Part shown: in pieces, positions 255 to 14,285 of the stretch
Layout of the letters: each line of letters begins with the position of its first letter
Numbering within the stretch: the first letter of the stretch is position 1
Made by a program: the position numbers and the translations under genes
Origin: Verrucomicrobiota bacterium
GTDB taxonomy: Bacteria > Verrucomicrobiota > Verrucomicrobiia > Verrucomicrobiales > Verrucomicrobiaceae
Direction of reading: 5' to 3'
NCBI GenBank assembly: GCA_043757085.1
Contig: JAYVQB010000084.1
Coordinates: 1-35,799 of the forward strand
DNA length: 35,799 nucleotides
The notes under the pieces: model-generated
Database searches by the model: none
What the model was told of the DNA's origin: nothing
What the model saw: only the letters and a program-made list of their open reading frames with translations

Positions 255-1097
255 ATGCAATCAGAACTCACTGAAAAATTGGAGCGCCTCCGCGAATATC
301 TCGCCCGCATGGAACGCGTCATCGTCGCGTTTTCTGGCGGAGTGGACAGCAGTCTGGTATTGAAAATGGCGGCGGATGTATTGCAAAAGAATGCACTGGG
401 CGTCATCGCCGTTTCACCAAGTTTGCCTGAGTCCGAACGTCATGAAGCGCTCGCGTTGGCGCATTCGCTGGCGGCAAACATTGAGGTGGTGGAAACAAAT
501 GAAACGGATGACGCGGAATATATCGTCAATGCCCCCAACCGGTGCTTCCATTGCAAAAACCATGTCTATGCGACTCTCCGCTGCATGGCCGATGAGCGTG
601 GCATCGCGCATGTTCTCGACGGAATGAACGCGGAAGACGCCTTCGATATTCGGCCCGGGCGTGCCGCTGCGATCAAGCACGGTGTGCGCAGTCCATTGAA
701 CGAACTTGATTTCTCCAAACAAGATGTGCGCGATGCAGCTCTTGCGCTCGGCTTGTCGAACTGGGACAAGCCAGCTGCGGCGTGCCTTTCGTCGCGCATT
801 CCTTATGGCACCCAGATCACAACGGATCTCCTCAAGAGAATCGAACTCGCCGAGGAGCTTCTTCACTCGCTGGGCTTTCATGAACTTCGCGCGCGGCATC
901 ACGGGGATGTCATTCGCATCGAAGTGCCGGATACAGAAATTGATTCAGCACTTCAGCAACGTGAGGCGATAAGCGGAGGGTTGCGCGCCCTCGGCTGGGC
1001 CTATGTCGCACTTGATCTCGACGGCTTGCGCCATGGCAGTCTGAATGAAACAATGCGCGCTCGCGAGAGAAAGTTGGTGGAGCATTTTACAGCATGA
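255..1097 (+). CDS. larE: LarE, ATP-dependent sulfur transferase of nickel-pincer (NPN) cofactor biosynthesis
   Basis: PP-loop ATP pyrophosphatase motif AFSGGVDSS (aa 25-33). AACLSSRIPYG holds Cys177, at the position of the L. plantarum LarE sulfur-donor Cys176. An extra CxxC (C97, C100) is present. 4-nt ATGA overlap with larB. Confidence 0.9.
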   Translation: MQSELTEKLERLREYLARMERVIVAFSGGVDSSLVLKMAADVLQKNALGVIAVSPSLPESERHEALALAHSLAANIEVVETNETDDAEYIVNAPNRCFHCKNHVYATLRCMADERGIAHVLDGMNAEDAFDIRPGRAAAIKHGVRSPLNELDFSKQDVRDAALALGLSNWDKPAAACLSSRIPYGTQITTDLLKRIELAEELLHSLGFHELRARHHGDVIRIEVPDTEIDSALQQREAISGGLRALGWAYVALDLDGLRHGSLNETMRARERKLVEHFTA

Positions 1098-1861
1098 ACA
1101 CTGAAACACTGCGCGCTCTCTTGCAGCAGGTGGCGACCGGAGCCTGTGCTCCAGATACAGCAATCGAAACGCTGCGCACGCTTCCTTTCACCGAGGCGGC
1201 GCAAACTCTGGCGGATACGCATCGCGAAATTCGCACTGGTCTGCCGGAGGTTGTTTATGGGCGACAGAAAACCACGCAGCAGATCATGGAGGCGGTATCA
1301 ATTCTGCATGCTGCGCATGGTCACGCGCTGGCCACACAAGTTTCAGCGGAGAGTGGCGCGGCACTTTGTCAGTGTTTTCCAGAAGGAAGTTACAACGCTG
1401 TTTCATTGTTGTTCAGTTTGGGTAGCATGGAGCCTCGCTCAAAACAGGAGAATGTGTGTGTCGTGTGCGCTGGCACTTCCGATCTGCCAGTTGCAGAAGA
1501 AGCCGCAGGCACGCTGGAGTTTGCCGGAGCCACGGTGCAGCGCGTGCGCGATGTCGGCGTCGCGGGCTTGCATCGTTTGTTGGGCAAACTTGAATTGATT
1601 CGTGAGAGTCGCGTTGTGATTGCCATCGCCGGCATGGAAGGGGCGTTGCCAGGAGTAATTGCCGGACTGGTCGCTGCACCCGTGATCGCAGTCCCCACCA
1701 GCATCGGCTATGGCGCGAGCTTCGGTGGACTCTCCGCATTGTTGGCCATGTTGAACGCCTGTTCAGGCGGCATTGGTGTGGTGAATATTGATAACGGTTT
1801 TGGCGCTGCTGTGCTGGCGTTGCGAATGCTGAATGTAGCAGCCGACGTGAGGAGGCTCTAA
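1094..1861 (+). CDS. larB: LarB, pyridinium-3,5-biscarboxylic acid mononucleotide synthase (PurE/AIR-carboxylase-like)
   Basis: The C-terminal half (VCAGTSDLPVAEEA...AIAGMEGALPGVIAGL...VIAVPTSIGYG...NIDNGFGAA) is the PurE-like LarB signature. The gene sits between larE and larC. The last 8 codons (VAADVRRL) plus stop are supplied by a 24-nt repeat. Confidence 0.9.
   Translation: MNTETLRALLQQVATGACAPDTAIETLRTLPFTEAAQTLADTHREIRTGLPEVVYGRQKTTQQIMEAVSILHAAHGHALATQVSAESGAALCQCFPEGSYNAVSLLFSLGSMEPRSKQENVCVVCAGTSDLPVAEEAAGTLEFAGATVQRVRDVGVAGLHRLLGKLELIRESRVVIAIAGMEGALPGVIAGLVAAPVIAVPTSIGYGASFGGLSALLAMLNACSGGIGVVNIDNGFGAAVLALRMLNVAADVRRL
1835..1858 (+). repeat. 24-nt terminal inverted repeat, left copy (GTAGCAGCCGACGTGAGGAGGCTC)
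   Basis: Perfect reverse complement of 2256-2279. Overlaps the last 8 codons of larB, and the TAA stop follows directly. Confidence 0.9.
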
Positions 1862-1882
1862 TTATCTACCGCTCAATCTAGG

Positions 1883-2236
1883 ATGACTGTCATGATTGCT
1901 TCTCTCTCTGAAGGCTGGAGATCGGCCCAAAACGATTTGGTATTTATTGTTACTATTTCCATCTATTTTTCTTTGATTGGGCCTTTTTGGATCATTTTCA
2001 ATAGTGGTGTCGACACGCTGCTGGGTATTCTTTGGCTCGCAGTTGACATCGCTATTGTGCTTAGAATATGGAGCGCCTCTCGCAAAGCTCTCTCTCGACA
2101 CGAGAATAACAACTCGCCCCAAGGATACCTCAAGACTTGCCTCGCAGGAACCGCATCACTCGTTTTGCCACCTGCCGCATGGATATTAGTGAACTTCGCA
2201 ATCATAGCTACGTGGAACCATTTTCACAAAACGTGA
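1883..2236 (+). CDS. Hypothetical small membrane protein (117 aa, 3-4 hydrophobic segments)
   Basis: ATG-initiated ORF filling the segment between the two 24-nt inverted repeats. Hydrophobic stretches include LVFIVTISIYFSLIGPFWIIF, LLGILWLAVDIAIVL and LVLPPAAWILVNFAIIA. Visibly more AT-rich than the flanking lar genes. No family recognised. Confidence 0.45.
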   Translation: MTVMIASLSEGWRSAQNDLVFIVTISIYFSLIGPFWIIFNSGVDTLLGILWLAVDIAIVLRIWSASRKALSRHENNNSPQGYLKTCLAGTASLVLPPAAWILVNFAIIATWNHFHKT

Positions 2237-2255
2237 TGTCCGCCCGATAACATTT

Positions 2256-2279
2256 GAGCCTCCTCACGTCGGCTGCTAC
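2256..2279 (-). repeat. 24-nt terminal inverted repeat, right copy
   Basis: GAGCCTCCTCACGTCGGCTGCTAC is the exact reverse complement of 1835-1858. It lies 9 nt upstream of the larC ATG. Confidence 0.9.
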
Positions 2280-2288
2280 TAAACTCAA

Positions 2289-3476
2289 ATGAAAACACTC
2301 TACTTCGACTGCATTGCCGGCGCTTCCGGCGACATGATCCTCGGTGCATTGATCGATGCTGGACTGGATGCAGACTGGCTGCGCGGTGAACTCGGCAAAC
2401 TTCCCATCAGCGGCTGGAAGCTCGAAACGAAGCGCGTTGATAAAAATGGATTCACAGCAACAAAAGTGGATGTCATCGTCGGCCCGCAGCCGCACGCCCG
2501 GCCGTTGCCGGAAATCGAGCGTGCCATTCGCGATAGCACGATAGCGGAGCAAATTAAGACGCAGGCATTGCAAGTCGTCCGCATCATCGGCGCGGAAGAG
2601 GCGCGCATTCACGGAATGCCGATTGAAGAAGTGCACCTGCATGAGGTCAGCGGCGAAGATGCAATCATTGATATTGTCGGCAGTTTGCTTGGTGTGGATC
2701 ATTTGGGAATCAAACGCATCATCAGCAGTCCATTGCCGCTGGGTCGCGGATTCATCGCGGGTGCGCACGGCCAGATTCCGCTGCCTGCGCCGGCGACGGT
2801 TGGCATTCTCAAAGGCTTGCCCATCGTGGGATCACCGATCAATGCGGAATTGGTGACACCCACAGGCGCGGCATTGATCAAATTTTTGGCAAGCAGCTTT
2901 GGCCCGCTGCCCGCGATGCGGCTTGATGCCGTCGGCTACGGCGCGGGCACTTGGGATCTGGTCATTCCAAATCTCCTTCGCGTCTTCATCGGAGAGGGCG
3001 ACACCAATGATTTTGATACAGACACTGTCGCTGTGCTTGAGACAAATCTTGATGACCAGTCCGCCGAGCAGCATGGTCATGTGATGGAAAGACTGCTGGA
3101 AGCTGGTGCGCTTGATGTGACATTGACGCCCGCGCAAATGAAAAAAAATCGTCCCGGTGTTACATTGAGCGTCATCGCCAAACCGGAAGATCAGGCCGCG
3201 ATGCGAAATCTTATTTTAACCGAGACCAGTTCACTCGGAGTGAGAGAGCAACACATGCGGCGCAGCGTGCTGCCCAGAGATTGCATCCGCGTGAACACGC
3301 AGTTTGGCGAGACAGTCGTGAAGGTTTCGCATCTCCCCGGTGGTGCACACAAGTATGCGCCGGAGTTTGAGGACTGTCGTGCTCTCGCTCGCAAAGCGGG
3401 CGTGCCGTTGAGAGAAGTTTATGTTGCGGCGGAAGCTGCGGCGCGAGCCGCGCATGAAAGGCCCGGCAGTCATTAG
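2289..3476 (+). CDS. larC: LarC, nickel insertion (CTP-dependent cyclometallase) protein of NPN cofactor biosynthesis (DUF111 family)
   Basis: N-terminus MKTLYFDCIAGASGDMILGALIDAG is the LarC/DUF111 signature. Single unsplit 395-aa ORF. lar gene context. Confidence 0.9.
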   Translation: MKTLYFDCIAGASGDMILGALIDAGLDADWLRGELGKLPISGWKLETKRVDKNGFTATKVDVIVGPQPHARPLPEIERAIRDSTIAEQIKTQALQVVRIIGAEEARIHGMPIEEVHLHEVSGEDAIIDIVGSLLGVDHLGIKRIISSPLPLGRGFIAGAHGQIPLPAPATVGILKGLPIVGSPINAELVTPTGAALIKFLASSFGPLPAMRLDAVGYGAGTWDLVIPNLLRVFIGEGDTNDFDTDTVAVLETNLDDQSAEQHGHVMERLLEAGALDVTLTPAQMKKNRPGVTLSVIAKPEDQAAMRNLILTETSSLGVREQHMRRSVLPRDCIRVNTQFGETVVKVSHLPGGAHKYAPEFEDCRALARKAGVPLREVYVAAEAAARAAHERPGSH

Positions 3477-3485
3477 TCAGACATT

Positions 3486-4289
3486 GTGAGCAGAATAGGC
3501 AACATACTTCGAGGCTTCATCGACCTGCTTAAGTTCAACAACTGGACGCAGTTGTTGGTAAACCGATTGTTGTTTCGGAATACGGGACTGGTCGTTTACC
3601 GGCTTCAGCAAAACGAGATTCTGATCGATCATGCCGGGGACGATCAGAACGGGACCCGCGCATGCCTGGTATCGGACATGTATGCCCGCCACTTTCATCT
3701 TATTCCGAAAGACAAGTTGCTCAATGTGCTAGACCTTGGCGCTAATGGAGGGGGATTCCTTTTAAGCATGCATTGTCACGGATTCAGATTTGGCACGCTG
3801 GCGTGTGTCGAGATGAATCCGGCCACATTTGGGCGATTGCACTTTAACGTTTCGCAAAACATACCTGCGGCGCACGCCCGCCTCATCAACGCCGCCGTCT
3901 GCCAGACGGACGGGAAAATGCTCGTGAATCTTGGCAAGGGTGGAACGAATGAAAGCATTCATCAGGCACAAGCCGCTCATGGCAAAAAAGCGACGGCTAT
4001 TGTCACACGCAGCTTCGATTCCGTCGTCAGTGAATGTTTTGGCGAAGCAAAAATTGACGTATGCAAAATGGACATTGAGGGAGCGGAGTTTGATGTGGTC
4101 TTTTCAGGTGCCGCTGAGTTTTTGAAGAACGTCAGGCTGCTGCTTATAGAAGTTCATCCGCATCCGACTCGGAGCAAGGACGAGTTACTCTCATTGCTGG
4201 CCAGAATGGGTTTTCAAGGACAGATGGGCGATCAGAAAACCAATGGCGGGTGCAGTTTATATGTCCTCAAGAACACTGGGACTGAGTAA
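3486..4289 (+). CDS. FkbM-family SAM-dependent methyltransferase
   Basis: VLDLGANGGGF (SAM-binding glycine motif) and CKMDIEGAEFDV (FkbM-family motif). GTG start 9 nt after the larC stop; the exact start is uncertain. Confidence 0.8.
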   Translation: MSRIGNILRGFIDLLKFNNWTQLLVNRLLFRNTGLVVYRLQQNEILIDHAGDDQNGTRACLVSDMYARHFHLIPKDKLLNVLDLGANGGGFLLSMHCHGFRFGTLACVEMNPATFGRLHFNVSQNIPAAHARLINAAVCQTDGKMLVNLGKGGTNESIHQAQAAHGKKATAIVTRSFDSVVSECFGEAKIDVCKMDIEGAEFDVVFSGAAEFLKNVRLLLIEVHPHPTRSKDELLSLLARMGFQGQMGDQKTNGGCSLYVLKNTGTE

Positions 4290-4332
4290 CACCATTCTGA
4301 GGCTGTAAACTAATGGAGCTAGGGAATTTCAA

Positions 4333-5721
4333 ATGAACAACGCAATGGCCAAAGCGTCGGAAACCGATGCGACATGTTCTGTATTCGTTGGGCTGATGAA
4401 CTATGCTGATTCATCGTTGACGCAAGGCAACGTGGCGCAGGCCATTAATCTGCTCGGTCTCGATGAAAACTTCATCCGTTCAGGCGACAACGTAGTGCTC
4501 AAGCCCAACTGGGTGAAGGAACATGATGAGCGTTACCCCGGTCCGAATCAATGGGAGCACATAGTCACACATCCGAGCGTGATAGAAGGCGTGATCGCAT
4601 GGGTAGCGCCGAAGTTGCAAGGCAAGGGCAGCATCACGGTGTGCGATGCACCACAGACAGACTCGTCGTTCGCCACGTTGCGGAAGTATTGCGACCTGGA
4701 TGCGATGATCGAACGATGCCGCGCGCAGTGGGAAGGTTTGCAAATTGAGCTGCTCGATCTTCGTTCTGAGGAATGGCACACGATTGATGGCGTGACGGTG
4801 GGCAAGACAGAGTTGCCCGGTGATCCGAAAGGCTCTACGCAAGTGAAGCTGAATGAAGACAGCGAGTTCGTCGGCTTCCACGGACTCGGCCAACTCTACG
4901 GCGCGAGCTACAATATGGCCGAGACGCGTGAACATCATCGCGACACGAAACACGAATACATGCTCTGCCGCACACCGATGGATGCGGATGTTCTGATCAA
5001 CATTCCGAAACTTAAGTGTCACAAAAAAGTCGGCCTGACTTGCGCGTTGAAGAACATGGTCGGCATCAATGCCAACAAAAACTGGCTGCCTCATCATACG
5101 GAAGGCACGCCAGATCAAGGTGGCGATCAGTTTCCCGTAGCGACTTTGAAGGCGAAGCTGGAGCACTCATGGATGGGTGGGATCAAGCGCATGCTTTTTG
5201 GTCGCAGCCTCTTAAGTAAGCTGTTCGTGCCAGTGAAAAAGTTGGGCCGTATGGTTTTCGGCAATACGCAAAACATCGTGCGCAGCGGCAACTGGCATGG
5301 CAACGACACCTGCTGGCGCATGGTTGTTGATCTTAACAAATGCCTGTTTTACTTCGATGGCAGCGGCGCTCCACGGACAAAGCCGCTGCGCTACCTGACT
5401 GTTGTGGATGCGATCATCGCGGGTGAAGGCAATGGCCCGATGTCGCCCGACGCAAAACCCTGCGGCATTATCGTTGCCGGGACTAATCCACTCGCAGTGG
5501 ACAGCGTCTGTTGTGCATTGATGGGCTTTGACTGGCGGAAGCTAAAGATGCTCTTTGGGGCATATCGCGCGACGCGGAAACAGGTCGCATCTTTTTCGCA
5601 TGACGAGATTCGTGTAGTGTCGAATGACGCAAGCAAGCAGAAAGCCTTGGGCGAATATCGCAACGATGATGGTCTCGCTTTCAAGCCGCATTTCGGATGG
5701 GTAGGTGCGGTGGAAATGTAG
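4333..5721 (+). CDS. DUF362 (COG2006) domain protein
   Basis: VVLKPNWV (aa 54-61) and INIPKLKCHKKVGLTCALKNMVG (aa 222-244) match my memory of the DUF362 signature. No ferredoxin-type CxxCxxCxxxC motif is present. Confidence 0.75.
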   Translation: MNNAMAKASETDATCSVFVGLMNYADSSLTQGNVAQAINLLGLDENFIRSGDNVVLKPNWVKEHDERYPGPNQWEHIVTHPSVIEGVIAWVAPKLQGKGSITVCDAPQTDSSFATLRKYCDLDAMIERCRAQWEGLQIELLDLRSEEWHTIDGVTVGKTELPGDPKGSTQVKLNEDSEFVGFHGLGQLYGASYNMAETREHHRDTKHEYMLCRTPMDADVLINIPKLKCHKKVGLTCALKNMVGINANKNWLPHHTEGTPDQGGDQFPVATLKAKLEHSWMGGIKRMLFGRSLLSKLFVPVKKLGRMVFGNTQNIVRSGNWHGNDTCWRMVVDLNKCLFYFDGSGAPRTKPLRYLTVVDAIIAGEGNGPMSPDAKPCGIIVAGTNPLAVDSVCCALMGFDWRKLKMLFGAYRATRKQVASFSHDEIRVVSNDASKQKALGEYRNDDGLAFKPHFGWVGAVEM

Positions 5722-7957: not shown

Positions 7958-7966
7958 TCATTGCCG

Positions 7967-10891
7967 ATGAAACAACTCGCCCAATATCAGGACGGTCGCC
8001 TTGAACTGCAAGAAGTGCCGCCGCCTATGCCGCCGCCTGGTGGCATTCTCGTGCGCACAACTTGTTCGGTGATCTCGCCAGGGACGGAGAAGATGAAGGT
8101 GGAGCAGGCGCGGATGTCGTTGTTGCAAAAGGCGAAGGCGAGACCAGACCAAGTGCGCAAGGTGATCGAGACGGCACGGACGCTCGGCTGGAAAGCCGCA
8201 ATGGAGAAAGTTCGTAATCGTCTTGAATCACCGACGCCCCTTGGTTACTCGGCAGCGGGTGTTGTGGTGGAGGTGGATGAGTTGAACACCCGATTCCGTG
8301 TCGGAGATCGCGTGGCCTGCGGTGGTGCAGAGTGTGCTTTTCACGCGGAGATGATCGCGGTGCCAGATTTGCTGGCGGCACCTATTCCCGATGGCGTTGA
8401 GGACTGGCAGGCGGCTTACACGACACTGGCCTCCATCTCAATGGAGGCCGTGCGCCAATCCAGTGTGCAACTCGGTGAACGAGTTCTTGTGATTGGGCAG
8501 GGGCTTGTCGGTTTGCTGGCGACGAATTTACTCAAAGCTGCTGGTGCCCGCGTGATGGCTGCGGATTATGTGCCGGAACGTTTGCATACCGCGCTGGCGA
8601 TGGGCGCGGAGCGTGTGGTGAATCCGGGTCAATCAAAACTTGAAGAGGAAGTTCGAGTATGGACAGATGGTCATGGCGTGGATGCAGTGTTGTTATGCAT
8701 GGGTGGGAAGGGTCGCGAGGCGGCGGACACGGCAATAGCCTGTCTGCGGGATCGCGGCGTCATGGTCATCGTGGGTATTTATGATGCGGAGCTGTCATGG
8801 AAAACGGCTTACATGAAAGACATTCAGGTGCGTTATTCGCGCAGTTACGGCCCGGGCCGTTACGATCCGCAGTATGAGTGGGGTGGACATGATTACCCCA
8901 TCGGCCATGTGCGCTGGACGGAGAACCGGAATTTTGAGGCATGCCTCGCTCTCATGCGCAGCGGGCAGATCAATCTCACGCCTGTGACGACGAGACACGC
9001 GAAGTTCGCAGACGCGATTTCGGTTTATGATGAGTTGATGCGCGAGGGAAATGCGGACATTGGAGTCGTGCTGGAATATTCTGGTAGCTCAGGTGTTTCA
9101 CCTGAGACAAGTCGAGCGGGCATCCTGCCCTCGGAGCAATCGGACAAAATGTCCGATGCACCCGCGACAAGCAAAATGCCCGTCCTACCTAATCGTTTAT
9201 TTATCCCCTACAACTCCCATCTTCACACTGACAAAGCGCGTAGAAACCTGCCGCACTGGGAGCAGGAAGGCGTTACTCACTTCGTCACGTTTCGACAGGC
9301 TGATGCCATTGCGCAATCGCGTTTCATAGAGTGGCGCGAAGAGCGCGAAGCGTGGCTGTCGCGACATCCCAAACCGTGGGATTATGCGACAGAAGAACTT
9401 TATCATCGTCTCTTCGAGGAGCGACAAGAACATTGGTTGGATGAAGGCGCGGGTTCCTGCTTGCTCGCGAATGAGGATGAAGCGCTGCTCGTGAAAAATG
9501 CGATGCATCACTTCGACGGCGAGCGCTACATTCTTGATGAATATGTCATCATGCCGAACCATGTGCATGTGCTGATCAAGCCATTGGGCGGACATGCACT
9601 TTCAGGCATCATGCACTCGTGGAAAAGTTTTACTTCCCGAGAAATCAAGAAGCGTTACGGCCTTGGGGAAGAACCATTTTGGCAGGCGGAACGGTTTGAT
9701 CATGCCATACGCAGTGATGGATCACTTGATGCCAAGCGGAAATACATCTGGCAGAATCCATCGGCAGCAAAGTTGCGCGCAGGATTTGTTTGCGGATGCG
9801 GCATCGGTGTTGTGTTGCAGGACAGTAGCTCAGGTGTTTCACCTGAGACATGTCATAAGGGCATTCTGCCCGTTACGGTCCCGGGCAAAATGCCCCCCCG
9901 ACTCGTCTCAGGTGATACACCTGAGCTACACGTCATTGGCGCGGGCAACTTCGCGCGAACCATGCTGCTGCCACATGTGAAAGGAAAGATTGCACTCGGC
10001 ACCATTGTGAATGCGACTGGGATTAGCGCGAAGCATGTAAAGGAAAAATTTGGATTCGCCGATGCTGAGACAGATTCATCAACGATTTTTTCAAGCAAGG
10101 GTAACGCCGTAATGATCGGCACGCGGCATCACCTTCATGCGCCGCTCGTGCTTGGCGGGCTGGCTGCAAACAAACACGTCTTCGTCGAGAAGCCGCTATG
10201 CCTCACGCGCGATGAACTCACGAAAATCGACACTGAAATGTCGTCCACGCAAGGCAGCGTAATGGTCGGCTTCAACCGACGTTTCGCTCCCGCGACCATC
10301 GCCTTGAAAAAATCATTGGGCGCGATCTCGGGGCCGAAAGCGCTGGCCTATCACGTCTTCGCCGGACCGCTCGCGCCGGATCACTGGTATGCGAATCTCG
10401 AAGAAAGCGGTGGCCGCATTCTCGGCGAAGCATGCCACTTCTTCGACTTCGCGTGCTTCATGCTGGAAGCCAAGCCGGTGCGCATAACTGCGCAGATGAT
10501 CGGCGCGGCACGCGGGCGCAATCAATTTCCTGATTCCATAACCGCGCAAGTTGAGTTCAGCGATGGTTCATCGTTTCAGTTAGTCTATTCCGCCGAGGGC
10601 GATTTTGCGTTTCCAAAAGAAACCTTCCGCATCTTCGCCGCCGGCCTGATTGCAGAGTGCGAGAATTTCCAAAGGCTAAGTTTGCATCAAAATAATAAGA
10701 CATCGGTGAAAAAATTCACTGGCAAAGGCCACGCCGAGGAAATAACCGCATGGCTCGCATTTCTCAACGGCTCCGCCGCGCATCCGCTACCCTATGAGCA
10801 GTCGCGGCAGAGCATGGCCCTCACGTTCGCGGCACTCGACTCCATTCGTGAAGGCCGTAGCATTGAGGTAGCAAGGGCGTCCCGCCCCTGA
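7967..10891 (+). CDS. Bi-domain oxidoreductase (MDR/Zn-alcohol-dehydrogenase-like N-domain + Gfo/Idh/MocA C-domain) carrying an in-frame RAYT transposase domain in the linker
   Basis: One uninterrupted frame (the track starts at TTG 7961; ATG 7967 gives MKQLAQY). The N-domain has VLVIGQGLVGLL (Rossmann). The C-domain has HVIGAGNFARTMLLPH and VFVEKPL (Gfo/Idh/MocA). The central ~280 aa form an HUH Y1 transposase (see the mobile element). The last 8 codons lie in a REP-like repeat. Confidence 0.8.
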   Translation: MKQLAQYQDGRLELQEVPPPMPPPGGILVRTTCSVISPGTEKMKVEQARMSLLQKAKARPDQVRKVIETARTLGWKAAMEKVRNRLESPTPLGYSAAGVVVEVDELNTRFRVGDRVACGGAECAFHAEMIAVPDLLAAPIPDGVEDWQAAYTTLASISMEAVRQSSVQLGERVLVIGQGLVGLLATNLLKAAGARVMAADYVPERLHTALAMGAERVVNPGQSKLEEEVRVWTDGHGVDAVLLCMGGKGREAADTAIACLRDRGVMVIVGIYDAELSWKTAYMKDIQVRYSRSYGPGRYDPQYEWGGHDYPIGHVRWTENRNFEACLALMRSGQINLTPVTTRHAKFADAISVYDELMREGNADIGVVLEYSGSSGVSPETSRAGILPSEQSDKMSDAPATSKMPVLPNRLFIPYNSHLHTDKARRNLPHWEQEGVTHFVTFRQADAIAQSRFIEWREEREAWLSRHPKPWDYATEELYHRLFEERQEHWLDEGAGSCLLANEDEALLVKNAMHHFDGERYILDEYVIMPNHVHVLIKPLGGHALSGIMHSWKSFTSREIKKRYGLGEEPFWQAERFDHAIRSDGSLDAKRKYIWQNPSAAKLRAGFVCGCGIGVVLQDSSSGVSPETCHKGILPVTVPGKMPPRLVSGDTPELHVIGAGNFARTMLLPHVKGKIALGTIVNATGISAKHVKEKFGFADAETDSSTIFSSKGNAVMIGTRHHLHAPLVLGGLAANKHVFVEKPLCLTRDELTKIDTEMSSTQGSVMVGFNRRFAPATIALKKSLGAISGPKALAYHVFAGPLAPDHWYANLEESGGRILGEACHFFDFACFMLEAKPVRITAQMIGAARGRNQFPDSITAQVEFSDGSSFQLVYSAEGDFAFPKETFRIFAAGLIAECENFQRLSLHQNNKTSVKKFTGKGHAEEITAWLAFLNGSAAHPLPYEQSRQSMALTFAALDSIREGRSIEVARASRP
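9084..9108 (+). repeat. REP-like unit: GTAG + 8-bp-stem hairpin (GTAG CTCAGGTG TTT CACCTGAG AC)
   Basis: Perfect 8-bp stem with a 3-nt loop preceded by GTAG. 25/25 identical to 9825-9849. Translated in the host frame as SSGVSPET. Confidence 0.9.
9118..9155 (+). repeat. Mini-hairpins GGGCA-TCC-TGCCC (9118-9130) and CGGACA-AAA-TGTCCG (9141-9155)
   Basis: Perfect 5- and 6-bp stems with 3-nt loops. Same family as 9859-9895, 11059-11073 and 12182-12196. A decayed copy (aGCAAAATGCCC) follows at about 9170-9181. Confidence 0.7.
9825..9849 (+). repeat. REP-like unit, second forward copy
   Basis: 25/25 identical to 9084-9108. Similarity continues imperfectly for about 22 more nt, into a GGGCA-N3-TGCCC hairpin. 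Confidence 0.9.
9859..9895 (+). repeat. Mini-hairpins GGGCA-TTC-TGCCC (9859-9871) and GGGCA-AAA-TGCCC (9883-9895)
   Basis: Two perfect 5-bp stems with 3-nt loops, lying between the forward and inverted REP copies. Confidence 0.75.
9905..9929 (-). repeat. REP-like unit, inverted copy
   Basis: GTCTCAGGTGATACACCTGAGCTAC is the reverse complement of the REP except for the loop (TAT vs TTT). Translated as SGDTPEL. Confidence 0.9.
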
Positions 10892-10920
10892 TCGGGCAAG
10901 GGCGAGATGCCCTTGCTACC
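10867..10920. repeat. GTAG-headed REP-like imperfect palindrome (GGTAGCAAGGGC ... GCCCTTGCTACC) spanning the oxidoreductase stop codon
   Basis: The 12-bp perfect outer arms 10867-10878 and 10909-10920 are inverted. The right half contains a tight hairpin, GCAAGGGC-gagat-GCCCTTGC (10896-10916). The TGA stop (10889-10891) lies inside the element. Confidence 0.8.
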
Positions 10921-10969: not shown

Positions 10970-11044
10970 GTCCCCGTAGTTCAATGGATAGAACGGTGGT
11001 TTCCTAAACCGCAAATTCAGGTTCGACTCCTGACGGGGACGCCA
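10970..11044 (+). tRNA. tRNA-Arg (anticodon CCT)
   Basis: Hand-folded cloverleaf: acceptor GTCCCCG/CGGGGAC, D-arm GTTC-AATGGATA-GAAC, anticodon arm GTGGT-TTCCTAA-ACCGC (anticodon CCT), variable loop AAAT, T-arm TCAGG-TTCGACT-CCTGA, discriminator G, encoded CCA. 75 nt in total. Confidence 0.9.
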
Positions 11045-11058
11045 CTCAAAACAATGCA

Positions 11059-11073
11059 CGGGCAAGATGCCCG
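11059..11073 (+). repeat. Mini-hairpin CGGGCA-AGA-TGCCCG
   Basis: Perfect 6-bp stem, same family as the hairpins flanking the RAYT. Lies between the tRNA and the heparinase-like gene. Confidence 0.7.
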
Positions 11074-11088
11074 CGCTCCCTTTATAAA

Positions 11089-12966
11089 ATGGCTGGCGCA
11101 CTTTGGTATTGGCATCGCTTCCGGGCCATGGGCGTGTCCGAGTTGTGGCATCGGATCATGGAGAAGGTCGGGAAGATCACGGAACCGTTCGCGCTGTCCG
11201 AAATCAGTGATGTGCACATCACACAAAAGGCCGCAAATTATCCGGCTCTGCCGTCGCGTGAGACTGCTCCGGTCTTGTTGAAACAAACGCTCGCGAATGA
11301 CGCGGCAAAGTTGCTCAATGGAAAATGGACGCTGTTTGGCTGGAAGGAAGTGCGGGTGTCCTCGCCGCCCGACTGGCATCGCGATTACATGCGAGGAGTG
11401 AGTGTTCCGAAGATTGGTGGAATTAATCATCGAACTCTGCCCGACGGAGCGGATGTCCGCGCGATCTGGGAGATTAATCGCTGGGCGGAACCTGTGCGGC
11501 TCGCGATGCATGGATGGTTGAACGATGATCCTCCTGCGATTCAGCGTGCTCAACAGTGGCTCGCTGACTGGGTAAAAGTGAACCCGGTGGGTGAAGGCAT
11601 CAACTGGACGAGTGCGCTTGAGGGGGGATTGCGATTGATTAATTTTTGCTGGTTTGATGCATTGGTATCGCAGATGGGGGAAAAGCAAAGTGATCTCGTG
11701 GATTCGATTGTTCCCGCACATGTCTGGTGGGTAAATCGCCATCTGTCATTTGGATCATCGGCAAACAATCATCGACTGGGAGAACTTGCGGGACTGTTGT
11801 TGGCGGTGAAACGCTGGCCTGAAATGGAACAATTTACTGACACGGCAGAGAGCCTTTGGAAACAGATCGCTGATTGCATTATGACTCAATTTGCCGAAGA
11901 CGGAGGCAATCGCGAACAGGCACTGCATTATCATTTGTTTGCCTACGAGATAGCACTTCATGCATGTAATGCGATGAAGGTGACAGAAGGACCTGTCATA
12001 GATCGCTTGCAACGCGCGGCAGATTTTTTTGTGCGTATGTCACATCCACAGGAATCTTGGGACTACGGCGATAATGATGATGCGCAGTTAGTCCCACTGA
12101 CGATGCATCGCGAGAAAGCCGCTGCGGAGTGGGGCGCGTGGATGCATGGTTGTGGCACAGGCTTGCAGCCTGTGTGTCCAACGGGCATTCTGCCCGATCA
12201 GGAGGGCGTTGGATTAAATTACTGGCTTCGCGGTGAGCACGGGCAGTATGCCCATGCTATACACAAGTCACAGACCTGTGCCACAGACTGGTGGATTGCG
12301 CCGCAATCTGGTATGGCTGTGATCGAGCGCGATGGCTGGAAACTGCGGGTCGATGCATCACCACTTGGTTTCGGCAAACTGGCCGCGCATGGTCACTGTG
12401 ACGCGATGCATGTTTCCATTTGGGATGGCGAAAACGCGCTGGTAATTGATCCGGGAACAGGCGGCTACTTCGGAGCGGAGGAACTTCGCACAGAGCTTGC
12501 TTCATGGAACGCTCACAATGGACCGCAGCCAGTCGAGGGTTTTAAAACGCCGCGACGGGCAGGGACGTTTTTGTGGGCATGCCCGCATTCGACACCTGAG
12601 ATTGATTGTGTAGGTGATGAAATACACGTCCGCTTTAGCAGCGAGGAGCATTGTTTTTCTAGAACAGTCCGCTTTATAGATGGAGTGAATCACGTGGCGG
12701 TATGGGACTTGGAATCAAACAAGAAAAAATTTAAAGTTCGCTGGCAAATTGCACCGGATCTAATCGTGCGCTCGATCGATTCAAGAATTGCATCGTTTGA
12801 GATTTCCAGAGGACGAAACATCTGGAGCATGTCAGTCATGAGTGAAGAAAAATTAGTTAATGTTACAACTGGAAGAACATCACGATTCTTCGGTGAAGAT
12901 GAACCTGGTTCTGTGATTGAGGTCGTTGCCCAGGGTTGGCTGCGAACGGAGTGGCATCGCCTCTAA
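11089..12966 (+). CDS. Heparinase II/III-family (alginate-lyase-fold) protein
   Basis: SSANNHRLGELAGLL (toroid-domain N-H motif) and AAHGHCDAMHVSIWDGENALVIDPGTGGY (Hepar_II_III C-terminal motif). This family is commonly paired with bi-domain oxidoreductases in glycan loci. Confidence 0.8.
   Translation: MAGALWYWHRFRAMGVSELWHRIMEKVGKITEPFALSEISDVHITQKAANYPALPSRETAPVLLKQTLANDAAKLLNGKWTLFGWKEVRVSSPPDWHRDYMRGVSVPKIGGINHRTLPDGADVRAIWEINRWAEPVRLAMHGWLNDDPPAIQRAQQWLADWVKVNPVGEGINWTSALEGGLRLINFCWFDALVSQMGEKQSDLVDSIVPAHVWWVNRHLSFGSSANNHRLGELAGLLLAVKRWPEMEQFTDTAESLWKQIADCIMTQFAEDGGNREQALHYHLFAYEIALHACNAMKVTEGPVIDRLQRAADFFVRMSHPQESWDYGDNDDAQLVPLTMHREKAAAEWGAWMHGCGTGLQPVCPTGILPDQEGVGLNYWLRGEHGQYAHAIHKSQTCATDWWIAPQSGMAVIERDGWKLRVDASPLGFGKLAAHGHCDAMHVSIWDGENALVIDPGTGGYFGAEELRTELASWNAHNGPQPVEGFKTPRRAGTFLWACPHSTPEIDCVGDEIHVRFSSEEHCFSRTVRFIDGVNHVAVWDLESNKKKFKVRWQIAPDLIVRSIDSRIASFEISRGRNIWSMSVMSEEKLVNVTTGRTSRFFGEDEPGSVIEVVAQGWLRTEWHRL
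12156..12196 (+). repeat. Double hairpin inside the heparinase-like CDS: CACAGGC-ttgca-GCCTGTG (12156-12174) + CGGGCA-TTC-TGCCCG (12182-12196)
   Basis: Two perfect stems (7 and 6 bp). GGGCATTCTGCCCG is 14/14 identical to 9859-9872 next to the RAYT. Translated in frame as GTGLQPVCPTGILPDQ. Confidence 0.75.
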
Positions 12967-12983: not shown

Positions 12984-14285
12984 ATGAACATCTCCATTTT
13001 CGGTCTCGGATATGTCGGCGCAGTAACGGCGGGCTGTTTAGCAGAGCTTGGTCATCGCATTATCGGCGTGGATGTGCAGCTATTAAAGGTGGATGCGTTG
13101 AATGCAGGGGTGTCGCCTATAATTGAGCCGGGGCTGAATGAGTTATTACAGAGGGTAAGGCATGAAGATCGGTTGCGAGCGACGACTGATGCAGTCGAGG
13201 CTGTGAATGAATCAGAAGTGAGCATCATCTGCGTGGGCACGCCTTCGTTGGAGTCGGGACAATTGAATCTGGATCATGTTCGCAAGGTTTCGCGGCAGAT
13301 TGCGGAGGCGGTTATAAAGAAGGGTAACCCGCATGTGGTGATCTTCCGCAGCACGATGCTGCCCGGCAGCACGCGGGCGATGGCAGATGAATATTTTTCT
13401 GAACCGCGAATCACGACGATGTTGCGGATTTATCACAGTCCTGAGTTCTTGCGTGAAGGCACGGCGGTGCAGGATTTCCGTGAACCATCGCTGGCAGTGC
13501 TTGGAACGCACAATGGAAATAGCCCGCAAAGCGACGAGGCGTCGCTTCTGCTTGGAGGGAATCCTGCAGTGCTGACATGGGAGGGTGCAGAGATGATCAA
13601 ATACTCCTGCAATTATTTCCACGCGCTCAAGGTCGGCTTTGCCAACGAGATTGGCCGTCTGTGCAAACATCTCGGCGAGGACGGCGCGAGAGTGATGGAT
13701 GTGGTATGCGAGGATACCAAGCTGAATATCTCGCGCCAATACTTGCGACCGGGTAATCCGTTTGGTGGTTCGTGTTTGCCGAAGGATGTGAGTGCGCTGA
13801 AGTCGTTTGCGCGCGTGGAGGGCATCAGTTTGCCGCTCCTTGAAAATACCTTGGACACCAATCAGGCCCATCTCGACCAACTCATCAAACTTATCATCAG
13901 CAAAGATAAGCGGCGCATCGGTCTGCTGGGGCTTGCTTTCAAAGCAGATACTGACGACTTGCGAGGCAGTCCAATGGTGGCCGTGGCGGAGAGATTGCTC
14001 GGGCTTGGCTATGAACTTCACATCTATGATCCGCAGCTAAATATCGCACGCCTGATTGGCGCGAATGCGAATGAAATTCAACGACGCATGCCGCATCTGG
14101 CATCATTATTGAGGTCGAGCGTGCATGAAGTAATTGACAAATGTGATGTGATCGTGGCCGCGCAGAAGTGCGCAAGTCACGGTGAAATGCAGGCCTCGGC
14201 AAGGTCAGGGCAATGTGTCATTGATGTGAACGGTTGGTCCGAGCTAATGGATTTGCCGTGGAAATACGAAGGGATTTGTTGGTAA
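12984..14285 (+). CDS. algD: GDP-mannose 6-dehydrogenase (AlgD-like nucleotide-sugar dehydrogenase)
   Basis: MNISIFGLGYVGAVTAGCLAELGHRIIGVDV..., ...PEFLREGTA..., ...GGSCLPKDV..., ...LGLAFKADTDDLRGSP... and the C-terminal ...EGICW follow P. aeruginosa AlgD closely, as I remember it. ATG 12984 is preferred over the track's TTG 12975. Confidence 0.8.
   Translation: MNISIFGLGYVGAVTAGCLAELGHRIIGVDVQLLKVDALNAGVSPIIEPGLNELLQRVRHEDRLRATTDAVEAVNESEVSIICVGTPSLESGQLNLDHVRKVSRQIAEAVIKKGNPHVVIFRSTMLPGSTRAMADEYFSEPRITTMLRIYHSPEFLREGTAVQDFREPSLAVLGTHNGNSPQSDEASLLLGGNPAVLTWEGAEMIKYSCNYFHALKVGFANEIGRLCKHLGEDGARVMDVVCEDTKLNISRQYLRPGNPFGGSCLPKDVSALKSFARVEGISLPLLENTLDTNQAHLDQLIKLIISKDKRRIGLLGLAFKADTDDLRGSPMVAVAERLLGLGYELHIYDPQLNIARLIGANANEIQRRMPHLASLLRSSVHEVIDKCDVIVAAQKCASHGEMQASARSGQCVIDVNGWSELMDLPWKYEGICW

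Follow-up and report, generated by a model that had tools for sequence, protein, structure and literature searches.

REP-associated tyrosine transposases (RAYTs) are among the most widespread 'domesticated' transposases of bacteria. Palindromic repeats translated in frame at permissive protein sites are known from Rickettsia as the Rickettsia palindromic elements (RPEs), reportedly described by Ogata and colleagues in 2000. IStrons, which join a group I intron to an IS200/IS605-type transposon, are described as harmless within genes through RNA self-splicing (PMC4227781). In the known RAYT systems the gene stands on its own, is present in a single copy, is inherited vertically and lies between REPINs, which are doublets of repetitive extragenic palindromes (REPs) (PMC5581495, PMC6006769). 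The E. coli enzyme TnpA_REP is monomeric and its structure with a bound REP hairpin is available (4ER8; PMC3479197); the GTAG guide is bound by residues W94, Q95, E/D100, H101 and R104 (PMC6006769). In the survey of Quentin et al. 2018, 'unexpectedly long proteins' were dropped as gene fusions or annotation errors. The RAYT considered here lies on contig JAYVQB010000084.1 (assembly GCA_043757085.1) of a Verrucomicrobiota bacterium, in a stretch of 35,799 nucleotides (35.8 kb) referred to below, as a whole, as the window. It is found, with its REPs, inside the reading frame of a bi-domain oxidoreductase gene. We consider it probable that positions 9084-9929 are an old REPIN-RAYT-REPIN cassette that itself forms the linker, is translated between the two enzyme domains, and is expressed and shielded by the host gene. 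An earlier note on this DNA had called the arrangement unusual, and full-text literature searching found no description of RAYT genes in frame inside host proteins.

The forward-strand frame 7961-10891 is unbroken over 976 codons counted from TTG 7961. The true start is taken as ATG 7967, because the homologues all open with MKQLAQ, and the protein then has 974 amino acid residues. The open reading frame (ORF) and its two enzyme domains, of the medium-chain dehydrogenase/reductase (MDR) or alcohol dehydrogenase (ADH) type and the Gfo/Idh/MocA type, are listed here with the ratio of nonsynonymous to synonymous divergence (dN/dS).

7967-10891, forward strand: tri-domain ORF, 974 residues, in the order MDR/ADH, REPIN, RAYT, REPIN, Gfo/Idh/MocA
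7967-9082, forward strand: MDR/zinc-ADH-like N-terminal domain, ending ...GVVLEYSG (Pfam ADH_zinc_N, 1.4e-21; alignment to bi-domain homologues; dN/dS 0.11)
9929-10891, forward strand: Gfo/Idh/MocA C-terminal domain, starting HVIGAGNFART (Pfam; homologue alignment; dN/dS 0.11)

Pfam places ADH_zinc_N at residues 183-301 and GFO_IDH_MocA at residues 658-771, together with C-terminal domains of GFO_IDH_MocA. Both domains stand in one ORF within a conserved exopolysaccharide locus, as in a bi-domain oxidoreductase, and they are 75-85% identical to proteins named 'bi-domain-containing oxidoreductase'. The ORF call and Pfam agree with the uninterrupted frame, the MDR/Zn-ADH front and the Gfo/Idh/MocA back that had been read from the sequence before.

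Between the two domains Pfam reports Y1_Tnp at residues 523-597 (33.1 bits, cutoff 23). The transposase module contains the following parts.

9188-9823, forward strand: complete RAYT (Y1 HUH transposase) coding sequence, 212 residues, without its own start or stop; dN/dS 0.14
9560-9568, forward strand: HUH motif, His-Val-His in MPNHVHVL, present in 19/19 fused homologues and aligned with HMH of 4ER8
9680-9712, forward strand: counterparts of the GTAG-binding residues, WQAERFDHAIR, from alignment to 4ER8, position by position
9743-9745, forward strand: catalytic-type Tyr in KYIWQNP (YIxxNP helix), invariant in both alignments

The best PDB sequence match of the RAYT core is 4ER8, and the segment WQAERFDHAIR matches W94, Q95, E100 (Asp in this protein), H101 and R104 of E. 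coli TnpA_REP. The AlphaFold2 (AF2) model of the core has a pLDDT of 93, and Foldseek returns 4ER8_A first (E-value 5.5e-6, probability 1.0), followed by the TnpA of ISDra2 and IS608. The template modelling (TM) scores of the 4ER8 match are just 0.45/0.56, and in the model a helical stretch (about residues 43-108) separates the first strands from the core. Free-standing relatives have about 209 residues and start MSFRxxFKPY..., to which the N-terminus LFIPYNS... of the fused RAYT corresponds. It follows that the fused copy is the whole gene, less its start and stop. It is not a free-standing gene, being embedded in the ORF 7967-10891; the cassette, lacking a start and a stop, is therefore expected to be expressed only through read-through of the host ORF. 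The element also contains in-frame ATGs at 9149 and 9176. The positions given in the earlier note for the HVH motif, the Tyr codon and these two ATGs proved correct and all in frame, and Pfam, the 4ER8 match, AF2 and the motifs support its view of an intact RAYT between oxidoreductase domains.

In its features the RAYT agrees with the TnpA_Y1 subclass 2.7 defined by Quentin et al. 2018. With the known REPIN-RAYT systems (E. coli TnpA_REP 4ER8, the Pseudomonas RAYTs and subclass 2.7) it shares the Y1 HUH fold, the HVH, YIxxNP and WQ/D-H/R features, the GTAG/GTGG hairpin REPs as inverted doublets on both sides, and an apparently single-copy state with vertical descent. However, those systems are free-standing in intergenic REP clusters, whereas here the RAYT is inside another frame and its REPINs are translated. 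Since TnpA_REP is monomeric, a RAYT could plausibly be active within a fusion, and GTAG-hairpin REPs are most likely still the substrate of this one, working as a monomeric domain.

The hairpin REPs flanking the RAYT have a GT[AG]G foot and lie in the REPIN arrangement.

9084-9108, forward strand: left REP, with GTAG, an 8-bp stem and a 3-nt loop; compensatory changes across loci
9084-9192, forward strand: left REPIN-derived spacer, made of REP A, hairpin B GGGCATCCTGCCC, and degenerate B' and A' ...GCCCGTCCTAC
9825-9929, forward strand: right REPIN, made of REP 9825-9849 (+), hairpins B and B', and inverted REP 9905-9929 (-)

The 25-mer GTAGCTCAGGTGTTTCACCTGAGAC occurs at 9084-9108 (+), 9825-9849 (+) and 9905-9929 (-, one mismatch), while 0 matches are expected from shuffled sequences, and every copy forms a hairpin with GTAG at its foot and a stem of 8 bp (z about -5). 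The right REPIN is a 105-nt hairpin (-41.1 kcal/mol, z -12.9), of which the left repeat side is a more degenerate version. Both sides are translated: the left spacer as SSGVSPETSRAGILPSEQSDKMSDAPATSKMPVLPN, with no host-frame stop and with low AF2 confidence, and the right REPIN as SSGVSPETCHKGILPVTVPGKMPPRLVSGDTPEL. The element 9084-9929 comprises 846 nt, or 282 codons, and starts at codon position 2. It contains 0 stops in the host frame, while the two remaining forward frames have 3 and 19. It had been stated before that 25-nt GTAG-hairpin REPs bracket the RAYT in frame and that the 846-nt element has no stop of its own and leaves the host frame intact; the repeat search, the folding and the stop counts confirm both statements.

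Across loci the hairpin units lie 27 nt (9 codons) apart, the REPIN measures 105-108 nt, and lengths change in steps of 3 or 27 nt. Over ten REPIN copies, pairing in the four local hairpins amounts to 95% and 10 pairs are compensatory, a level reached by 0/500 shuffles; an example in the REP stems is CTCAGG/CCTGAG versus GACAGG/CCTGTC. The single long REPIN hairpin has weaker covariation support than the four local ones. The flanks of six loci contain 0 host-frame stops in 713 codons, compared with 8-44 in the other frames and with a mean of 23.6 (minimum 9) in shuffles. In locus L006 (11135-11330 and 11913-12100) and in protein P0015 single 27-nt REP units are tandemly expanded into nine-residue repeats, SGKMPEPQP two to three times and SSGFQPEGS five times, so that the spacers are longer and the frame is unbroken.

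The arrangement is shared by related bacteria. A whole-protein search found at least 18 further clusters, of 951-1013 residues and 65-78% identity over 99% of the query (two of the 18 are partial sequences, of 825 and 914 residues), with an identical three-domain architecture and the RAYT at exactly the same position. The carriers of the oxidoreductase-RAYT fusion are related Verrucomicrobiales only; those with names are Verrucomicrobiales and Prosthecobacter proteins from metagenome-assembled genomes, labelled 'hypothetical protein' or 'zinc-binding dehydrogenase'. In an exhaustive search of 1.84 billion cluster representatives the oxidoreductase fusion formed only one 50%-identity cluster; fusions were judged from this search, since a word-index search with the RAYT core omitted fused proteins. 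All retrieved loci are syntenic with the window. Their common genes are exosortase EpsH/EpsI, LarE/B/C-like, DUF362, CapK-like, (WecG), the oxidoreductase, heparinase II/III and UDP-glucose dehydrogenase.

In a neighbour-joining tree the 19 fused RAYTs form one clade with none of 87 free-standing relatives inside it, and the nearest free-standing relative has at most 58% identity. Host and RAYT distances are correlated (r = 0.67, Mantel p = 2e-4), and synonymous divergence (dS) is saturated between most carrier lineages. From codon alignments of six loci, dN/dS is 0.11 for the ADH domain, 0.14 for the RAYT core (from three pairs with unsaturated dS) and 0.11 for the GFO domain. The repeat-encoded flanks differ, with dN/dS of about 0.65 and dS of about 0.68 versus more than 1.4 in the host domains, which points to constraint on the DNA and not on the peptide. 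The HUH, Tyr, WQ and D-H-x-x-R residues are unchanged in all 19 fused lineages. On these sequence comparisons the arrangement is old, and the RAYT-bearing linker is not a fresh insertion. The earlier picture, in which a RAYT entered an existing linker as an isolated or recent event, is thus not supported, in view of at least 18 syntenic clusters, monophyly, co-divergence and saturated dS. The same note had reasoned that the central domain at the same place in unrelated taxa would speak for an ancient fusion and against a mobile insertion. The same position does recur in at least 18 clusters, but the carriers are Verrucomicrobiales only, and sisters 94-98% identical to them lack the RAYT.

It is important to compare these proteins with the homologues that have no RAYT. 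Most homologues have 709-729 residues, with a linker of 35-41 residues which is itself a translated palindrome; the earlier figure of 694, obtained by subtracting 282 from 976, was therefore too short. Since the RAYT-less linker is already one REPIN, the true gap to the closest relative, P0020 (722 residues), corresponds to the RAYT plus one REPIN, about 252 residues. In P0020 and some further homologues the linker is a solo REPIN of the GILP/GRMP type, as in the cassette (that of P0020 has 117 nt, -71.7 kcal/mol and z -9.7); other homologues have linkers from at least seven other palindromic repeat families, making at least eight in all. Alignment thus bears out the location of the RAYT in the inter-domain linker, but not its description as a clean insertion there: the cassette is the linker, and the RAYT-less linker is a REPIN.

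The linker families have the signatures GILP/GRMP, IADCG/IRNP, EQGAG/APCP, EDGRW/LPSP, MTNDE/RHSSF, AECGM/RIPNS, PGFSR and AQSSV. In homologues P0020-P0120 the linkers are always in frame and of near-constant length, with DNA-fold z values from -9.7 to -1.5. For the other REPIN linker types, no common 12-mers were found within about 20 kb of their genes. Three clusters with 958-977 residues (P0028, P0045 and P0046) carry a different insert of about 235-255 residues with Kinase-PolyVal (PF18762) in the same inter-domain linker. Palindromic linkers are located as follows.

L002, 11114-11230: palindromic linker
L008, 3652-3771: palindromic linker
L009, 11114-11227: palindromic linker
L010, 11102-11209: palindromic linker
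L011, 2143-2256: palindromic linker

The RAYT carriers are scattered over the host tree, and two pairs of loci are particularly close. The gene halves of L004, with RAYT, and L008, without it, are 96.0% and 97.6% identical, and the identity between L132 (with) and L010 (without) is 94-97%. For either pair the homology ends exactly at the linker edges. In L004/L008 the mismatches cluster beside the linker, with identical sequence beyond, as expected for import by homologous recombination. Solo REPIN linkers of the same or another family have apparently been exchanged by recombination. The monophyly of the fused RAYTs, together with the homology breaks at the linker edges, makes a single old entry followed by vertical descent the simplest account. 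Just upstream of the oxidoreductase gene, L004 (8291-8776) and L009 (8983-9441) have a free-standing Y1_Tnp gene of 152-161 residues, which is absent from L008. It belongs to a different IS200-like family (MxTYxQIxYHxVF...HVHIL) with its own long inverted repeats; as a source of the linker types it was rejected, the family being different and no link being seen.

These data allow us to propose the following course of events. The cassette would have entered the oxidoreductase linker once, in an ancestor of the Verrucomicrobiales, and then been inherited with the gene. The RAYT lineage would have given up its own start, stop and presumably promoter, and the host frame would give the element free expression. 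The cassette may be shielded from nonsense and frameshift decay, because such mutations would also destroy the downstream Gfo domain, and, the linker being tolerant, the host would pay little for it. The two direct REPINs could recombine, so that the cassette is deleted and a solo REPIN linker is left, and homologous recombination could exchange the cassette for other linker alleles. Among the possibilities raised in the earlier note, two fit best: that the insert is tolerated because the linker is flexible, and that its expression depends on that of the host gene.

The same RAYT family is also found within other proteins. Among the best 150 cluster representatives matching the RAYT core, 34 have it internally (at least 120 residues to either side) and another 34 have a single long extension. 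The hosts include XseA, HypF, RecG, DinG/XPD, CarB, Mur ligase, B12-radical-SAM enzymes, poly(A)/CCA polymerase, CARF-adenosine deaminase and many MmeI/Eco57I-type restriction-modification enzymes. The RAYT lies mostly between annotated domains. Flanks were read in ten of these proteins, where direct REP-derived peptides bracket the RAYT. With one XseA fusion as query, 55 matches of at least 600 residues (up to 779) were found, down to 51% identity, in Kiritimatiellales and Pontiellaceae, most with a Y1_Tnp match on record. The RAYT-less XseA of cultured Pontiella has 443 residues, the fusions being about 200 residues longer. In 12 aligned long XseA fusions HVH and Tyr are kept, with changes of Pro to Ala and of NP to NL/NV; a loss of the catalytic motifs in half of the XseA-embedded RAYTs is not borne out by this alignment. 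Genes of defence are rich in in-frame RAYTs, namely those of MmeI/Eco57I-type restriction-modification enzymes and of CRISPR-associated CARF-adenosine-deaminase proteins (examples are P0264, P0273, P0277, P0281, P0296, P0298, P0299, P0306, P0344 and P0355; P0249, P0258 and P0266).

The many unrelated hosts and the deep divergence among the XseA fusions suggest that in-frame residence is a recurrent and persistent habit of this RAYT family. On the basis of these matches, the cassette belongs to a broader class of RAYT cassettes that lie in frame in multi-domain proteins. More tentatively, at somewhat less than even confidence, we propose a RAYT clade with an obligate 'exonised' lifestyle: cassettes without start or stop, built of frame-neutral 27-nt units, long resident in the inter-domain linkers of host proteins with housekeeping or defence roles, translated and catalytically competent.

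Several observations weigh against an old, host-expressed and still functional cassette. REPs are rare beyond it. Counted in flanks of about 10 kb at each locus, about 2 REPs of this family occur in the roughly 150 kb around RAYT-bearing loci (1 in L001, 0 in L004-L007 and L132), and outside the cassette the window has one REP of the GTGG type (12152) together with degenerate hairpins. That the RAYT serves an active population of REPINs is therefore no more than a possibility; of the further REP copies that the earlier note had called for, the window supplies just this GTGG copy and the degenerate hairpins. The exact window 25-mer had 0 matches in JGI metagenome contigs, and the pattern GTAG-CAGGC-N5-GCCTG in GTDB genomes gave a REP class that occurs in many phyla among the matches listed. 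The NCBIfam score for REP_Tyr_transpos is 64-68 bits, under the cutoff of 80. The trees are neighbour-joining trees that carry no support values and agree incompletely in their deep topology. If there was a single origin, the RAYT must have been lost or replaced many times independently, in part through replacement by unrelated REPIN families, for which no mechanism is offered. A bias of the cluster representatives towards long proteins is possible and would make the embedded fraction too high. Finally, a single polypeptide of about 107 kDa, with three folded modules and two repeat-encoded spacers of about 35 residues, is what the reading frame predicts, and the full-length AF2 model is weak (pLDDT 64, predicted TM score 0.40). 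Its confidence is low mainly at residues 362-428 and 613-649, the repeat-encoded spacers. The RAYT and GFO modules are folded in it, with no confident inter-domain packing.

REP sequences are also seen in a neighbouring gene. In the heparinase II/III ORF 11089-12966, the segment 12150-12260 contains the GTGG plus hairpin REP at 12152 and hairpins GGCATTCTGCC/GGCAGTATGCC, all in frame, and encodes the peptide ...GTGLQPVCPTGILPDQ... between the N- and C-terminal Pfam domains. The heparinase orthologue of L002 has a REPIN at the corresponding place (13423-13556). A tRNA-Arg(CCT) gene, 10970-11044 (+), lies between the oxidoreductase and heparinase genes and has a short REP-like hairpin on either side (10895-10920 and 11058-11073); CTAC forms the end of one of the two.

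One alternative is that the RAYT does not work as a nuclease and persists as a folded, tolerated spacer which only an exact in-frame deletion could remove, a misfolding spacer being harmful to the enzyme. The scarcity of REPs outside the cassette and the low NCBIfam score are in line with this, and the linker does accept very different contents (eight REPIN families and a Kinase-PolyVal domain). However, a passive spacer would need neither the invariance of HUH, Tyr, WQ and D-H-x-x-R in 19 lineages nor the HUH and Tyr retained in XseA, and the dN/dS of the RAYT is on a par with that of the host domains. The occurrence of solo-REPIN deletions also means that retention of the RAYT is not forced. 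We regard an inert passenger as unlikely.

A domesticated tri-domain enzyme, in which the RAYT fold was recruited for the oxidoreductase or polysaccharide function, for example in regulation or oligomerisation, would explain the long retention under purifying selection in one conserved locus, and RAYTs generally behave like housekeeping genes (PMC5581495). However, the same family is embedded in XseA, HypF, RecG, CarB and restriction-modification enzymes. The same RAYT with REP brackets in unrelated proteins indicates that embedding is a property of the element and not of the oxidoreductase. Sister lineages manage without the RAYT, the REP hairpins are conserved as DNA, which a purely protein-level role would not need, and AF2 shows no confident packing between the domains. 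This possibility, which the earlier note had also listed, is quite improbable given so many unrelated hosts.

The cassette might also be removed or bypassed to give a bi-domain enzyme, a free RAYT or both, by RAYT-catalysed or slippage excision of DNA in part of the population, by initiation at ATG 9149 or 9176, or by proteolysis of the spacers. The left and right REPINs repeat each other in direct as well as inverted orientation, and their 71-nt arms, 76% complementary, could loop out the RAYT; solo-REPIN alleles exist, and the REP unit GGCAGGATGCC gives a conserved in-frame ATG upstream of the RAYT. Routine removal, however, would not need a frame kept open through 713 flank codons in six lineages, and, as no stop follows the RAYT, internal initiation would yield a RAYT-GFO fusion. 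An intron or IStron is ruled out by Rfam, whose E-value scan of 8800-10200 gave just sub-threshold generic hairpin matches on the right REPIN. An intein is likewise ruled out, as no splice-junction residues are conserved among homologues: the junctions are EYSG|SSG and PEL|HVIGAG with no terminal Asn, and the pattern across homologues is ...EY(xx)|SSG and PEL|H(V/A)(I/V). Separate products are, on this evidence, very unlikely. A recent selfish insertion that inactivates the gene, or an assembly or gene-calling artefact, is scarcely credible: although RAYT/REP systems are normally intergenic and a random in-frame, stop-free insertion is improbable yet possible, dS is saturated between carriers whose frame is open and whose host domains have a dN/dS of 0.11, which with the conservation rules out a pseudogene or fresh insertion, and the same architecture in independent NCBI, JGI, ENA and Logan assemblies rules out an artefact.

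The old, translated REPIN-RAYT-REPIN linker may be compared with other elements that reside within genes. Like the RPEs, it contains translated in-frame palindromes, as do the solo REPIN linkers and the heparinase REP segment. RPEs, however, are non-autonomous and are not known to have an embedded cognate transposase, whereas here the enzyme gene is in frame; the repeat families are presumably unrelated. The likeness to IStrons is that a relative from the IS200/IS605 world can lie within coding genes and leave them intact. In the present case a ribozyme is not detectable, and harmlessness would come instead from in-frame translation through the linker. Inteins with homing endonucleases are also selfish nuclease-type modules inside host proteins, co-inherited and patchy among orthologues. 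Unlike them, the present element is in a linker and not in a conserved active-site motif, and its enzyme is of the HUH Y1 class. In the absence of conserved protein-splicing junctions the insert presumably stays in the mature protein.

The surrounding locus has a further feature of interest. At 255-5721 of the window, and in the syntenic loci, LarE-like (NAD_synthase), LarB-like (AIRC), LarC (Ni_insertion) and DUF362 genes are conserved in an exosortase-type polysaccharide locus. The LarE/B/C-like genes hint at a step in sugar modification that depends on a nickel-pincer cofactor.

If this reading is correct, residing in frame in linkers would, beside inteins and self-splicing introns, be a third way of occupying genes without harm. 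It would account for the 'unexpectedly long' Y1 proteins discarded in earlier surveys, and would be relevant to genome annotation, to the origin of domain insertions and to protein engineering with HUH tags. The natural pairs of RAYT-bearing and RAYT-less alleles in near-identical genes offer material for testing, the predictions being a fusion protein of about 107 kDa and an internal domain with HUH activity. The linker would turn into a site at which cassettes recombine, and the case shows that inter-domain linkers can consist of translated REPINs and be exchanged like cassettes. For the RAYT family, this would be a new way for the gene of a mobile element to persist, translated as a module within host proteins that are essential or useful.

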